Origin: Actinomycetota bacterium | Lineage (GTDB): Bacteria; Actinomycetota; Coriobacteriia; Anaerosomatales; SLCP01 | Direction: 5' to 3' | Assembly: GCA_037446725.1 (NCBI GenBank) | Contig: JBBIIC010000004.1 | Span: forward strand, 74,891-138,890 | Length of the DNA: 64,000 bases | Part shown: positions 15,054 through 62,116 of the stretch, piece after piece | Layout: each line of letters begins with the position of its first letter | Numbering within the stretch: position 1 is the first letter of the stretch | Translations under genes and position numbers: made by a program | Notes under the pieces: model-generated | Told to the model about the DNA's origin: nothing | Databases searched by the model: none | What the model saw: only the letters and a program-made list of their open reading frames with translations

Positions 15054-15090
15054 GAACGACCCCGGTACCCGCTCCGGGGTCGTTCTGTTT
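15054..15090 (+). terminator. Intrinsic terminator after rplS
   Basis: A perfect 12-bp stem, GAACGACCCCGG / CCGGGGTCGTTC, with an 8-nt loop, followed by TGTTT. Confidence 0.7.
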
Positions 15091-56946: not shown

Positions 56947-57993
56947 ATGGATTCCGAGAAGAACAAGGTCCTGGACGTCACCAAGGAGCAGATCGAGCGC
57001 AAGTTCGGCAAGGGCTCCCTGATGAAGCTCGGGGAACACGCTGCGATAACGCAGGTCGCCGCCATACCCACCGGCTCGCTCGCGCTCGACGCGGCACTCG
57101 GGATAGGCGGGGTTCCGCGCGGCAGGATCGTGGAGATCTTCGGACCAGAGTCGAGCGGCAAGACCACACTTGCGCTCCAGATCGTCGCCGAAGCGCAGGC
57201 CGCAGGCGGCATCGCCGCGTTCATCGATGCGGAGCACGCTCTGGACCCGAGCTATGCCGCCCGGCTCGGCGTGGACATCGACGAGATCCTCATCTCGCAG
57301 CCCGACACCGGCGAGCAGGCACTCGAGATCGCGGACATGCTGGTACGCAGCGGCGCCATCGACGTCATCGTCATCGACTCGGTCGCTGCCCTCGTCCCGC
57401 GGGCCGAGATCGAAGGCGAGATGGGCGACGCGTCGGTCGGCTTGCAGGCGCGCCTCATGAGCCAGGCGTTGCGCAAGCTCGCCGGCTCACTGAACCGCTC
57501 GAACACAACATGCATCTTCATCAACCAGCTGCGTGAGAAGATCGGCGTCATGTTCGGCAGTCCGGAAACCACCACCGGCGGACGTGCGCTGAAGTTCTTC
57601 TCGACCGTCCGTATCGACGTGCGCAGGATCGACTCGATCAAGCAGGGCACCGAGATCGTCGGTAACCGCGTGCGCGCGAAGGTCGTCAAGAACAAGGTCG
57701 CCGCACCCTTCCGCCTCGCGGAGTTCGACATAATGTACGGCACCGGGATCTCCAAGGAGGGCAACCTCATCGACCTCGGCGTCGAAGAAGCCGTCGTGTC
57801 GAAGTCCGGTGCCTGGTACACGTACGGCGACGAGCGTCTCGGGCAGGGACGGGAGGCCGCCAAGGACTATCTGCGCGAGCACACCGCGCTTCGCAACGAA
57901 ATCGAGCACAAGATCCGCGAGAACATCGGCCTGCCGGTCAACGGCTCCACCCCCGTGGCCGAACTCGTCTCCGAGGTAAGCGAGGAGAGCTAG
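56947..57993 (+). CDS. recA: Recombinase RecA
   Basis: [34 protein letters not shown] and the L2 loop. I prefer ATG 56947 over the track start at 56884. Confidence 0.98.
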
Positions 57994-57999
57994 CACCCC

Positions 58000-58647
58000 G
58001 TGGACGGCGACGCGCCGGGCATCGTCGAGCTCTCGAGCCCCCGCGGGCGAAGCCGCGTCCGTTCCGTCGCGCTCGACGGCATCGAGGTCCGCAGGACCAG
58101 CGTCGACGCCCTCAGGCTCGCCGGAGTGAGCGACGGGGACTCCATGTCCCGCGACGAACTCGGACGCCATCTCGACGAGTCGGAGTCGCGAGCGGCGATG
58201 AACCGCGCGCTGAGACTGCTCGGCCACCGGGAGCGGTCAGACGCCGAGCTTGGTGCCCGTCTGAGTGAGGACGGCTATCCGGTCCGCGTGATCGCCCAGG
58301 TGCTGTCCCGCCTGTCCGACTACGGCTACCTCGACGACGCGCGTTTCGCCGACGACTACGTCCGCTCGAAGAGGTCCGCGGGCTGGGGGAGGCGTCGGAT
58401 CTCGAGAGGTCTCGCAGAAAAGGGGGTGGCCGAGGAAGTCGCCGCGGCCGCCCTCGAAACCTCTCTGCCGGAGTCCGACGAGTTCGAGCGAGCATGCGCC
58501 GTCGTCTCCGGAGTGGACGTCTCGACCCCCGCAGGCGCCGCCAGAGCGCTCAGGAGGCTCGTGGGCCGCGGTTTTGACTACGATGTCGCCCGCCGGGTCA
58601 TCGACCGGCAGAGGAGCTGTGGCGACGGGTGCGCCGACGACCTGTGA
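58000..58647 (+). CDS. recX: RecA regulator RecX
   Basis: Repeated helical RecX pattern (A...AL..L..RERS..EL..RL...G, YLDD.RFA..YVRSK) immediately after recA. Confidence 0.88.
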   Translation: MDGDAPGIVELSSPRGRSRVRSVALDGIEVRRTSVDALRLAGVSDGDSMSRDELGRHLDESESRAAMNRALRLLGHRERSDAELGARLSEDGYPVRVIAQVLSRLSDYGYLDDARFADDYVRSKRSAGWGRRRISRGLAEKGVAEEVAAAALETSLPESDEFERACAVVSGVDVSTPAGAARALRRLVGRGFDYDVARRVIDRQRSCGDGCADDL

Positions 58648-58650
58648 ATC

Positions 58651-58680
58651 TTGACACTTTCCGCTGCTGAACCGTACTAT
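58651..58680 (+). promoter_or_regulatory. Near-consensus sigma-70 promoter in the recX-rny gap
   Basis: TTGACA (58651-58656), 18-nt spacer, TACTAT (58675-58680). Confidence 0.6.
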
Positions 58681-58685
58681 GAGCC

Positions 58686-58864
58686 AGGCATATGTGATTC
58701 TCCGCCGCACAACGCGACAAGCTATGCCGGCGGTTTCGCACGAGCGACTCTAGACAGGCGACATCGCCCGGACCCTGAGGTCCGGCTTTGCGCATACCTG
58801 GCATATCGCATCGCGAGCAGCGTGATATCACATCTGCCGGACGCCGTGGCGTCCGGTTTTCTTG
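58686..58864 (+). ncRNA. Candidate structured RNA of about 180 nt (orphan sRNA or cis-acting rny leader/attenuator). The family was not recognised.
   Basis: It is bounded by the promoter above and an intrinsic terminator. A long-range helix pairs 58687-58698 with 58827-38. Local hairpins lie at 58702-33, 58768-85 and 58801-29. No plausible coding potential. Confidence 0.45.
58837..58864 (+). terminator. Intrinsic terminator
   Basis: CCGGACGC-cgtg-GCGTCCGG forms an 8-bp GC stem with a 4-nt loop, followed by TTTTCTTGTT. Confidence 0.75.
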
Positions 58865-58977
58865 TTCGCATCGCGTCCTGCCACTGACCGACACTCACGA
58901 GGCCAGAGGACCTGCCGGAACCGGCCTGCCACGCTAACGCACACGATAGAACCGGTCACGGGAAGGGAGGGTACACG

Positions 58978-60507
58978 GTGGAGTACATCTACGTAGTAGT
59001 TGCGGTCTTCGTCGGCGTCGCCCTCGGCTTCGCTTTCAACAGGTTCTTCGTCCAGGGCAAGTCGGCCCGCTCGCGGGAAGACGCCGAACGCATCGTCCGG
59101 GACGCCGAGAAGCAGGCCGAGACACTCAGAAAAGAAGCGGTCATCGAGGCCAAGGACCAGGTCTTCCGCATGAAGCAGGAGGCCGAGGTCGAGATCAAGG
59201 AGCGCCGCAAGGAACTCGGCGCGCTCGAGAACCGCATGGTGCAGCGCGAGGAGTCGATCGACCGGCGCGCGGAGTCACTCGACAAGCGTGAGCACCAGCT
59301 GTCGAGCCTGCAGGGCCAGATCACCAAGCGCGAGCAGGACCTCGAAGAGCTCGTCGCCGAGGAGAACGCGCGCCTGGAGCGGCTCGCGGGCATGAGCGCC
59401 GATGAGGCGCGCGACCTGCTGCTCGACCGCGTCAAGGAGGACGTGACCCGCGACGCGGCCGCCTACATCCGCGAGGCGGAGGCCCGCGCTCGCGAGGAGG
59501 CGGACAAGAAGGCCCGCAACATCGTCGGCATCGCGATCCAGCGTGTCGCCGCGGACCATACCGCCGAATCCACCGTGTCGGTGGTGCATATCCCATCGGA
59601 CGACATGAAGGGCCGCATCATCGGGCGTGAAGGCCGCAACATCCGCGCCTTCGAGCAGCTCACCGGAATCAACCTCATCATCGACGACACCCCCGAGGCG
59701 GTCATCCTCTCCAGCTTCGACCCTGTGCGCAGGGAGGTCGGCCGCATCACGCTCGAGTCGCTCATTCAGGACGGCCGCATCCATCCCGCACGCATCGAGG
59801 AGATGTTCAACAAGGCCGAGTCACTCGTCGCGCAGCAGATCCACGAAGCGGGGGAGCAGGCGGCCTTCGAGGCGGAGGTCCACGGTCTGCACGCCGAGCT
59901 CGTCCGCACGCTCGGGCGGCTGCGCTACCGCACCTCCTACGGCCAGAACGTCCTCAAGCACTCCCTGGAGGTCTCCCATCTCGCGGGTGTGATGGCCGCC
60001 GAGCTCGGTGTCGACGTCAAGCTCGCCAAGCGCGCCGGACTCCTGCATGACATCGGCAAGGCGATCGACCACGAGATCGAAGGTCCCCACGCCGTCATCG
60101 GCGCGGATCTGGCGCGGCGCATGAACGAGCCCAAGACCGTGCTTCACTGCATCGAGGCGCACCACGGCGACGTGGAACCCGCGACCGTCGAGGCGGTTCT
60201 CGTGCAGGCGGCCGACGCGATCTCCGCGGGCCGTCCGGGCGCACGCCGCGAGACGCTCGAGAGCTACATCAAGCGTCTCGAGAAGCTGGAGGCCGTCGCG
60301 CAGTCCCATTCGGGGGTCGAGAAGTGCTACGCGATGCAGGCGGGGCGTGAGATCCGCGTGATGGTGCAGCCCGACCGCATCAGCGATGCCGACTCGGTCG
60401 TGCTCGCGCGCGACATCGCGAAGCAGATCGAGGAGGAACTTGAGTATCCCGGCCAGATCAAGGTCATGGTCATCAGGGAGAGCCGGGCGGTCGACTACGC
60501 CAAGTAG
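58978..60507 (+). CDS. rny: Ribonuclease Y
   Basis: N-terminal TM helix, a coiled coil, a KH domain ([15 protein letters not shown]), an HD domain (HDIGKA...H) and a C-terminal region. Confidence 0.95.
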
Positions 60508-60578: not shown

Positions 60579-60617
60579 GCGTACCGAAGCGACAGACCGG
60601 CGGTATAGACTGTGGGT

Positions 60618-61694
60618 ATGAGCGACAACGACAACCTTCTCGAGTTCGTCGGAGCGGTCTCGGGCGAGGCCTACCTCAAGGTCGAGGAGAACCTGGGCGA
60701 AGGTTTCGTAAGGCTGCGCACCTCCGAGGCCGAACGACGTCAGGCCAAACACGATATCCGCTCGGTCGAGGACATCGTGGTCGAGCTGCTGCGCAACGCG
60801 CGTGACGCCCACGCCCAGCACATCTTCATCGCCACCTCGCGCGACGGCGAGCGTCGCCTGCTGACCATGATCGACGATGGAGTAGGGATCCCGTCCACCC
60901 ACCAGGAGGCCGTGTTCGAGCCGCGTGTGACCTCGAAACTCGACACCATGGTCATGGACAGGTGGGGCGTGCACGGGCGGGGAATGGCACTCTTCTCAAT
61001 CCGTGCGAACACCGCTTCATGCCGCATCGCGGCGTCCGACCTGCACCGCGGGACCTCGGTCTCGTTTACCGTCGATACCTCTGAGCTGCCTGAACGAGGT
61101 GATCAGTCCACCTGGCCCACCGTCGAGCGGGACGAGGCGGGCACGCTGCATGTCGCCCGTGGCCCTCATAACATCGTCCGCCGGGTGCTTGAGTTCGCCT
61201 GTGAGCACCCCGAGCTCGACGTCTACCTCGGGTCGCCCGCTGAGATCGCGGCGACTCTGTACGCGATCGCGCGTGCGCGCCTGGACACAGCTGAGCTGCT
61301 CTTCTGCGAGTCGCCCGGCCGGCTCGCGGTGTGGCAGCGCCCCGCAGCGGCATGCGATGCGTCGGACCTCGTCGATATCACCGCTACAATCGGCCTGCCG
61401 CTGTCCGAGCGCACGGCGCACCGCATTCTCGCCGACGAGCTGACAACCGTCGAGACGGTGATAGCCCAGGCGCAGGTGGACGAGGAGCCCCCGGCCCCGA
61501 CCACGCCGGACATCTATCGCGACCGAAGGGGCTTGAAGATCCACCACACCGACATCGCGCGCTTCAAGCAGGACCTCGCACGCGCATTCGACGACCTCGC
61601 CGAGCGGTATTACCTTCACCTGAAGGGTGAACCGAAGGTTAATGTCACCCGCGACGGTATAAGGGTCAAGTTCGAGGTCGACAAGGAGGAGTAG
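60618..61694 (+). CDS. Stand-alone histidine-kinase-type GHKL ATPase. It has no DHp/His domain and no TM segment, and has a possible C-terminal HTH.
   Basis: N box ELLRNARDA (60783-60809), G1 DDGVGI (60873-60890), F-like VFEPRVTSK, G2 GVHGRGMAL (60966-60992), and an HTH-like ATIGLPLSERTAHRIL (about 61378-61440). The start is ATG 60618 or GTG 60612. Confidence 0.7.
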   Translation: MSDNDNLLEFVGAVSGEAYLKVEENLGEGFVRLRTSEAERRQAKHDIRSVEDIVVELLRNARDAHAQHIFIATSRDGERRLLTMIDDGVGIPSTHQEAVFEPRVTSKLDTMVMDRWGVHGRGMALFSIRANTASCRIAASDLHRGTSVSFTVDTSELPERGDQSTWPTVERDEAGTLHVARGPHNIVRRVLEFACEHPELDVYLGSPAEIAATLYAIARARLDTAELLFCESPGRLAVWQRPAAACDASDLVDITATIGLPLSERTAHRILADELTTVETVIAQAQVDEEPPAPTTPDIYRDRRGLKIHHTDIARFKQDLARAFDDLAERYYLHLKGEPKVNVTRDGIRVKFEVDKEE

Positions 61695-61843: not shown

Positions 61844-62116
61844 GTGGAAGTCCTCAAGGTCTCCAGTAGGTCGAACCCTAACTCGGTTGCAGGCGCCCTG
61901 GCAGGCATCATCCGCGAGCAGGGTCCGGTCGAGGTCCAGACGGTCGGCGCCGGTGCGCTGAACCAGGCAATCAAGGCCATCGCAATCGCGCGCGGCTTCA
62001 TCGCACCCTCCGGCATGGAACTGACGTGTGTGCCCGCGTTCGCCGACATCACGATCGACGGCGAGGAGCGGACCGCCATCCGGCTGCTCGTTGAGCCGAG
62101 GGACATGCGCCGCTAG
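61844..62116 (+). CDS. spoVS: SpoVS-family protein
   Basis: MEVLKVSSRSNPNSVAGALAGIIREQG..EVQ..GAGALNQAIKAIAIARGF.APSG..L.C.PAF.DI.IDGEERTAI.L.VEPR is near-identical in pattern to B. subtilis SpoVS. The GTG start follows GAGGAG. Confidence 0.93.
   Translation: MEVLKVSSRSNPNSVAGALAGIIREQGPVEVQTVGAGALNQAIKAIAIARGFIAPSGMELTCVPAFADITIDGEERTAIRLLVEPRDMRR

Follow-up and report, generated by a model that had tools for sequence, protein, structure and literature searches.

A conserved structured RNA leader, a candidate transcription attenuator, upstream of the RNase Y gene in Coriobacteriia

The intergenic region between recX and rny in the 64-kb stretch of DNA analysed here (the window) carries a structured RNA that we interpret, with a probability of about 0.7, as the 5' leader of the rny mRNA and as a conserved cis-acting attenuator of this gene. 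The evidence for this leader is sequence-based, and the position of both transcript ends as well as the proportion of read-through are predictions. Transcription from a strong conserved promoter would begin at about G58687, and the first ~150 nt of the transcript would adopt a three-way-junction fold, with the helix P1, the hairpin P2 and an arm formed by P3 and P4. P1 would close the junction by pairing the very first nucleotides of the transcript and would pass straight into an intrinsic terminator, T. Two outcomes would then be expected, either a stop giving an RNA of ~175 nt or a read-through into rny across an unconserved spacer of ~110 nt; the leader would thereby set the amount of full-length rny mRNA, whose paired 5' end would probably shield it from 5'-end-dependent decay.

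The genes of this part of the window are arranged in the order cinA, thpR, recA, recX, the RNA, rny, a gene coding for a 360-aa GHKL-type ATPase-like protein and spoVS. The gene recX (58000..58647, + strand) was assigned with the RecX models of NCBIfam, although the match (E ~1e-25) did not reach the curated cut-offs, and rny, coding for ribonuclease Y (58978..60507, + strand, with a GTG start at 58978), with the TIGR03319 RNase_Y model at 747 bits for a cut-off of 454. The nearest relatives of this RNase Y are from uncultured Coriobacteriia, with 90% identity, one of them being labelled Anaerosomatales. The 330-bp gap between recX and rny exhibited a G+C content of 0.59-0.63 compared to 0.67-0.74 in the flanking genes, which bears out the lower G+C content given to this spacer in the original prediction (~0.60 in the gap and ~0.70 in the neighbours). 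The same prediction had presented the spacer as the longest non-coding gap of the window. On a crude map of ORFs and of codon-position G+C, the larger apparent gaps in the 64 kb all corresponded to long ORFs with a coding-like composition, which plausibly leaves the 330-bp gap as the longest genuine intergenic region.

A sigma-70-type promoter (58651..58680, + strand), close to the consensus and already recognised in the original prediction, was confirmed upstream of the RNA, with TTGACA at 58651-56, an 18-nt spacer and TACTAT at 58675-80. It is the sole sigma-70-like site in the 57900-59400 region, for 0.1 expected from shuffled sequences. The -35 box lies 4 nt after the recX stop codon and, in the window sequence, no terminator was found between this stop codon and the promoter. 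A TTGACN-N18-TANNNT motif was located at a fixed distance from the GGCA of P1 in 44 of 46 homologues, so that the first G of P1 coincides with the +1 expected for this promoter. The transcript is predicted to start at this G, about G58687, 7 nt past the -10 box.

The spacer located between the hairpin of the terminator and rny (58867..58977, + strand) is unconserved apart from the ribosome-binding site, GGGAGGG at 58965-71 in the window, and its length varies from 63 to 168 nt in the homologues. The original prediction had seen no convincing promoter for rny in the window spacer, and this observation holds for the family, no promoter-like site being found in any of the 46 hairpin-to-rny spacers scanned (the window and 45 homologues). 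With no promoter of its own in 46/46 spacers, rny would be transcribed through the RNA and its terminator, which makes this RNA its 5' leader. The position of the element, in the 5' UTR of the gene of a ribonuclease with no other promoter, is that of the autoregulatory leaders of ribonucleases.

Other elements of the region were also considered. A TGACA sequence is present ~35-45 nt before the start codon in 15 of 45 spacers, for 3.2 expected, and is absent from the window; as a second promoter it was rejected, being without a -10 partner. Sequestration of the ribosome-binding site was rejected as well, the unpaired probability of 0.25 being not significantly different from the 0.33 obtained in shuffles, and the accessibility of the site was in the lowest 10% for only 9 of 43 homologues, the window not being among these. 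A leader peptide or small ORF was not retained either: the 78-aa ORF found at 58651-58887 begins inside the -35 box, and the total length of the homologues varies from 153 to 184 nt, which gives no indication of a conserved reading frame.

We then describe the fold of the RNA in the window, where all features are on the + strand. The 58686-58866 RNA gave a folding energy of -78.4 kcal/mol (z = -3.58), and none of 200 dinucleotide shuffles folded as well. The 12-nt long-range helix of the original prediction, P1, was recovered with 11 of its 12 pairs formed between GGCAUAUGUGAU (58687..58698), which begins at the predicted 5' end, and the inverted repeat AUCACAUCUGCC (58827..58838), whose last 3 nt, GCC 58836-58838, are common to the stem of T. 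Two of the local hairpins proposed inside this helix were likewise found: P2 (58702..58733), an inverted repeat formed by CCGCCG 58702-07 and CGGCGG 58728-33 and followed by a conserved GGUU at 58732-35, and P4 (58768..58785), an inverted repeat CCGGACC-CUGA-GGUCCGG with a z of -3.0 when folded alone. The third one, at about 58801-29, was at chance level (z = -0.18) and unconserved, and was not retained. P3 is a long-range irregular stem around P4 (58735..58817) whose pairing in the window is uncertain; read by analogy with the homologous loci L005 and L019, the candidate pairs are UUCGC 58735-39 with GCGAG 58813-17, GCGA 58744-47 with UCGC 58806-09 and CAGG 58755-58 with CCUG 58797-800. An A/U-containing motif, GCGCAUAC (58790..58797), lies 3' of P4 and corresponds to the family consensus cGUAUAc in the nhmmer and covariance-model alignments.

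The intrinsic terminator that had been located ~150 nt past the promoter was also found. Its hairpin, GCCGGACGC-cgtg-GCGTCCGGT, extends from 58836 to 58857 and is followed by TTTCTTGTT. Terminator prediction gave the corresponding stem, GCCGGACGC/GCGUCCGGU at 58836-57, with a U-tract, UUUCUUGUU, at 58858-66. Folded alone, this terminator exhibited an energy of -17.3 kcal/mol with a z of -3.9, and its stem sequence is present once in the 64-kb window. The U-tract contains 6 U in its first 8 nt in the group of the window, for a family median of 4 U; it is poor in many high-G+C homologues and perfect in the low-G+C relatives, and the efficiency of the hairpin, judged from these sequences, may be low in some of the high-G+C homologues.

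In the subgroup of the window, the most stable fold is a rod at -78.4 kcal/mol, which pulls P2 apart and exceeds the consensus-constrained fold (-71.1 kcal/mol) in stability by ~7 kcal/mol. A long irregular rod as minimum free energy structure, together with a length of ~180 nt and a strict synteny with the downstream gene, could correspond to a divergent 6S-like RNA, or to another housekeeping RNA, co-transcribed with rny. This is highly improbable, since no match to the Rfam 6S models was obtained even with E relaxed to 10, the rod is confined to the subgroup of the window, and the consensus of the family is a three-way junction with a terminator hairpin and no large central bubble.

The conservation of the element was investigated in 80 Coriobacteriia loci chosen through RNase Y, and iterated nhmmer found it in 58 of them, with a conserved block whose limits are precisely the -35 box and the terminator tail. 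The conserved sequence comprises the CTTGAC...TAnnAT promoter, the 5' strand GGCAnnnGUGAU and the 3' strand AUCnCnnnUGCC of P1, the GGUU after P2, the cGUAUAc after P4, and the GCCGGRCG-loop-CGYCCGGY stem of the terminator. In P1, the GGCA and GUGAU of the 5' strand are at least 90% conserved and the UGCCGG of the 3' strand is nearly invariant. The sequence of the terminator stem is kept in every homologue, and such a sequence conservation of the stem is unusual among terminators.

The structure was then deduced from these homologues. MAFFT followed by RNAalifold on all 45 sequences led to a poor alignment in the middle and recovered the terminator alone, and subgroup folds and a covariance model were used instead. 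RNAalifold run by subgroup on sequence-only alignments recovered P1, P2, P3, P4 and T independently, with P3 being GUAUGnGG/CCnCAUAC in most subgroups. In nine seed sequences, compensatory changes were already visible in P3 and in an extension of P1, for instance GC to CG or UA to CG. The covariance model, R1, was used to align 35 and then 64 distinct sequences. In these alignments, which are fitted to the structure and in which the interior (P3) of the subgroup of the window aligns poorly, standard pairs occupied 91.8-92.2% of the cells compared to 75% after column shuffling and 27-46% when the partner was slid by 1-3 columns. Compensatory changes were found in 27 of the 38 pairs, and 0 of 500 shuffles matched the observed value on any measure. 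P1 was 92.8% paired in the 64 sequences, with four pairs showing compensatory changes; the base of P2 was 96% paired, with three of its four pairs compensatory across the family; P3 was 86% paired, and its six modelled pairs were all compensatory; P4 was 95% paired, with 7/7 compensatory pairs in the 64 sequences. All the modelled pairs of P2, P3 and P4 vary, while the terminal GGCA/UGCC of P1 and the greater part of T are invariant and bring no covariation information. The matches of R1 on the opposite strand were far weaker (for example 20.8 compared to 134 bits in L036) and G-U pairs were frequent, which indicates that the + strand is the RNA. A covarying structured domain in the 5' UTR, on the same strand as the gene, is a feature expected of a transcriptional riboswitch or attenuator.

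More distant relatives were assessed with a descriptor and with fold predictions. Four loci (L057, L067, L071 and L073) exhibited a shorter version of the element, with the promoter, a GGCA-type P1, P2, the A/U-rich motif, the 3' strand of P1, a GCCGGAU...GUCCGGC hairpin and U-rich tails. L057 carries GGCU/AGCC in P1, so that the fourth pair of this helix shows a compensatory change. Another locus, L032, passed the descriptor, its downstream hairpin being a weak 5-bp stem without U-rich tail. Slackia and one Eggerthellaceae MAG plausibly have a related leader; in the low-G+C relatives, among them Slackia, this layout comes with perfect U-tracts.

In the 64-kb window, R1 found a single copy of the element (58686-58862, 41.5 bits, E = 2e-10), the next match having an E of 0.94. 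A repeat or a mobile element was rejected, as neither the motif of P1 nor the sequence of the terminator recurs in the window and the covariance model gives one copy. The recA-recX-RNA-rny order is kept in nearly all loci; in L064, recA-recX is replaced by unrelated ORFs, and the promoter, the RNA and rny are still together. Wherever rny is visible, it is on the same strand, 60-230 nt downstream of the element. A test of this linkage that is independent of rny was made by scanning metagenomes with a pattern built from P1 and T alone, which returned 62 loci, and a full-length R1 match was obtained in 39 of them. In 34 of these 39 genuine copies, the element was followed on its own strand by rny at a distance of 79-227 nt; the five others are too near a contig end to show rny, and four of the five have recX upstream. 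The 23 pattern loci without rny were rejected as chance matches, having no full-length R1 match. The visible downstream gene is always rny, and no association with several metabolic or transport genes was found in this set. Strict synteny with co-transcription is also a property of housekeeping RNAs, and linkage alone is no proof of a regulatory leader.

The original prediction had proposed either an orphan sRNA or a riboswitch-like attenuator of RNase Y. Its promoter-to-terminator structured RNA stands, and the attenuator is plausible; the orphan sRNA has become weaker, the position, the strand and the distance of the element being all tied to rny. A trans-acting sRNA of ~175 nt, or a dual-function RNA with rny expressed via leaky read-through, would account for the strong promoter and the canonical terminator seen in the window, an RNA ending at this terminator would form a compact, stable molecule, and the sequence conservation of the helices could mean the binding of a protein or of a target. 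We consider such an RNA unlikely, as the element has its own promoter and terminator but was never found apart from rny, and the downstream gene is promoterless in 46/46 homologues. Moreover, the weak U-tracts of many relatives do not assure a discrete sRNA, and no obvious conserved single-stranded seed was seen besides GUAUA.

The leader of rny could act as an attenuator through the GCC triplet 58836-58838, which is common to P1 and T and forms a conserved 3-nt overlap. This one GCC would be contested by two GGC sequences, the 5'-terminal one in P1 and the 3' one in the terminator. In the model, a closed P1 leaves a terminator stem of 5-6 bp, 2-3 nt back from the U-tract; P1 closure would thus give a shorter stem placed farther from the U-tract, and through this small conserved overlap termination could depend on whether the junction is open or closed. 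In the predicted ensembles, the contested pairs of the window have a probability of 0.90 in P1 and of 0.09 as outer pairs of the terminator, and over 46 homologues the means are 0.62 for P1 and 0.35 for T, with many near 0.5. We infer that termination is partial and tunable. The mutually exclusive folds put forward in the original prediction are reduced, for P1 and T, to a conserved 3-nt overlap, and are lost for P4 and T as a family feature. The complementarity between the GGTCCGG of P4 and the 5' arm of the terminator is indeed present, and it does not extend beyond the close relatives of the window: the 3' arm of P4 as an antiterminator was rejected, this pairing being possible only where P4 is CCGGACC, in the subgroup of the window, with unrelated P4 sequences elsewhere. 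An exclusive pairing of 3 nt is small for a classical switch.

This minimal conserved alternative pairing would also be expected from a constitutive element, in which full pairing of the 5' end would make the rny mRNA more resistant to 5'-end-dependent decay and the hairpin would mainly end the transcription of recA-recX or dampen read-through at a fixed level. P1 begins at the predicted +1 in 44/46 homologues, no terminator separates the recX stop codon from the promoter, and there is no conserved sequestration of the ribosome-binding site, all of which agree with such an element. Against it, a conserved three-way junction, invariant stems and the GGUU and GUAUA motifs kept class-wide are more than would be needed, and terminator stems are rarely conserved in sequence; we give this explanation a small probability.

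A small-molecule or ion riboswitch, in which the junction would be the aptamer and a ligand would shift the stability of P1 and so tune the terminator, was considered on the same data. It would be consistent with a multi-stem junction closed by P1 and adjoining the terminator, with the strong covariation, with the GCC triplet common to P1 and T, and with the conserved unpaired GGUU and GUAUA motifs. We regard it as quite unlikely, given that rny is the only downstream gene and that no metabolic theme appears. The strongest conservation is located within the P1 and T helices and not in the junctions, the lengths of P2, P3 and P4 vary greatly with an interior remodelled between subgroups, and no Rfam riboswitch class matches. 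This helix-centred conservation, of P1 and T and not of the junctions, looks more like recognition by a protein or an RNase than like a small-molecule pocket.

For the effector of the attenuator, feedback by RNase Y itself is, by analogy with known leaders, our first candidate, at somewhat less than even odds; some other protein or a ligand is a more doubtful proposal, and the absence of any regulated switching would be surprising. RNase Y comes first on account of the precedent of B. subtilis rny, of its preference for A/U sites and of the rne and pnp leaders acting as sensors. The conserved GUAUA might, as a speculation, be a candidate entry site for RNase Y. A bolder and rather unlikely proposal is that of a new class of attenuator, in which the 5' GGC engaged in the P1 of a three-way junction would compete by strand exchange with the 3' GGC of the terminator for one GCC triplet, and in which any factor opening or locking the junction, be it RNase Y, another protein or a small molecule reporting RNA turnover, would set the read-through. 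If this were true, it would be a riboswitch-like sensor governing the global mRNA decay capacity in Coriobacteriia, including the Eggerthellaceae of the human gut.

We examined whether the element belongs to a known family. The original prediction had recognised no RNA family and, in agreement with this, Rfam 15 gave no family match in the 64-kb window or in 14 homologous loci; at E up to 10, a 20-nt terminator-like fragment of isrL was the only match, with 9.8 bits where the gathering score is 35. In the literature, neither the main text of surveys of RNA motifs nor searches on rny and RNase Y brought up a motif of this kind in the rny leader. On its sequence features we classified the element as a putative, previously uncatalogued structured cis-regulatory RNA motif specific to the rny of Coriobacteriia, and it can be proposed, with good support, as a new family for Rfam.

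Several known systems can be compared with this leader. The 6S RNA of E. coli is coded by ssrS, which is co-transcribed with ygfA, and it resembles the present element by being a structured RNA of ~180 nt with a fixed synteny upstream of a protein gene; in contrast, the rny leader lacks a central bubble, is not matched by the 6S covariance models and contains a terminator hairpin. With terminating riboswitches and protein-dependent attenuators, it has in common the succession of a promoter, a multi-helix domain closed by P1, an adjacent terminator and the gene, as well as a covarying structure. It differs from them by a single gene context, a competing pairing of 3 nt and a conservation centred on helices. 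In E. coli, the 5' UTR of rne is a conserved structured leader that is the autoregulation sensor of the major decay-initiating endoribonuclease; we take this rne5 element to be Rfam RF00040. Both are structured leaders of the gene of a decay-initiating endoribonuclease, but rne5 belongs to another enzyme family and another phylum and is without a terminator, and the element described here has no Rfam match. The Actino-pnp motif and the pnp leader of E. coli are conserved structures of 5' UTRs, thought or known to mediate feedback. They are also located upstream of a ribonuclease gene, but this gene codes for an exoribonuclease (PNPase), the folds are different, and again no Rfam match links them to the present leader.

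The initiation of most mRNA decay is due to RNase Y where this enzyme is present, and the control of its dosage is thus of transcriptome-wide consequence. To our knowledge, feedback control of RNase Y has been shown in B. subtilis alone, without a defined RNA structure. In this bacterium, the rny 5' UTR of 164 nt is cleaved by RNase Y within an autoregulation that relies mainly on cleavage in the first ~100 nt of the ORF, with no need for an elaborate leader structure (PMC10303841). The sites favoured by RNase Y are A/U-rich and weakly structured, and often lie beside stabilising hairpins (PMC11780869). Compared by description, the two rny leaders are alike in having a sigma-A-type promoter and a long leader, of 164 nt in B. 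subtilis and ~290 nt here, and differ in that neither a conserved junction nor a leader terminator was reported for B. subtilis. The carriers of the Coriobacteriia leader probably include cultivable gut genera such as Slackia, and a covarying, class-wide leader with its terminator constitutes a mutable element for studying how the RNase Y level is set outside Firmicutes.

A scan for hairpins over the whole window found canonical G+C-rich stems followed by a U-tract at only four loci of the + strand (around positions 15057, 32300, 40359 and 58836) and gave no such locus on the - strand. This genome has few classical intrinsic terminators, and the terminator of the rny leader, the structured RNA at 58687-58866 (+) in the recX-rny gap, is conspicuous for that reason. 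In the closest relatives of the window (loci L001-L004, L088, L100 and L118), a rod-like fold of the leader was favoured by about 7 kcal/mol over the family-consensus fold, a three-way junction derived from the covariance model and subgroup folds of leader homologues. The rod-like pairing spans 58700-58826 and joins the arms of the P2 hairpin with 58800-58826 (AUGCCGG/CUGGCAU and CGCGA/UCGCG). It may be an alternative conformation specific to the lineage of these relatives.

The low-G+C gut relatives Slackia and Eggerthellaceae (L074-L078, L080) exhibited a leader of about 115 nt, located about 130-300 nt 5' of rny. A promoter is followed there by a closing stem at the 5' end, a hairpin of 7 bp, either a GCAUAUGC or a UAUAUAUA motif, and a terminator whose U-tract is perfect. 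This leader is probably the rny leader of the window in diverged form, and its carriers are cultivable and suited to experiments. In L064, a MAG locus, unrelated ORFs occupy the place of recA-recX 5' of the leader (L064:1-2200), one of them with YD/RHS-like repeat sequence at its end. Despite this upstream replacement, the promoter, leader and rny are all intact.

Between the terminator hairpin and the rny start codon, a TGACA motif (YTGACAS) recurred 33-48 nt 5' of the start codon in 15 of the 45 spacers of related loci (L045, L064, L048 and L034, for example), compared to 3.2 expected from shuffled sequences (maximum 9); the motif is absent from the window. The motif is accompanied by no matching -10 box and is therefore no obvious promoter. 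A role as a signal for RNA processing is conceivable.

The gene directly downstream of rny (60612-61694, +) encodes a protein of 360 aa that has a GHKL/HATPase_c ATPase fold (PF02518). Of the 80 related loci, chosen through RNase Y, about 75 have it in synteny with rny, at 43-83% identity. A functional partnership between this protein and RNase Y is possible. After these two genes comes that of a SpoVS homologue (61844-62116, +; PF04232, E = 5e-38). The corresponding neighbourhood of Bacillus subtilis is recA-rny-ymdB-spoVS, and the order recA ... rny ... spoVS of the window is similar, despite its non-sporulating actinobacterial lineage.
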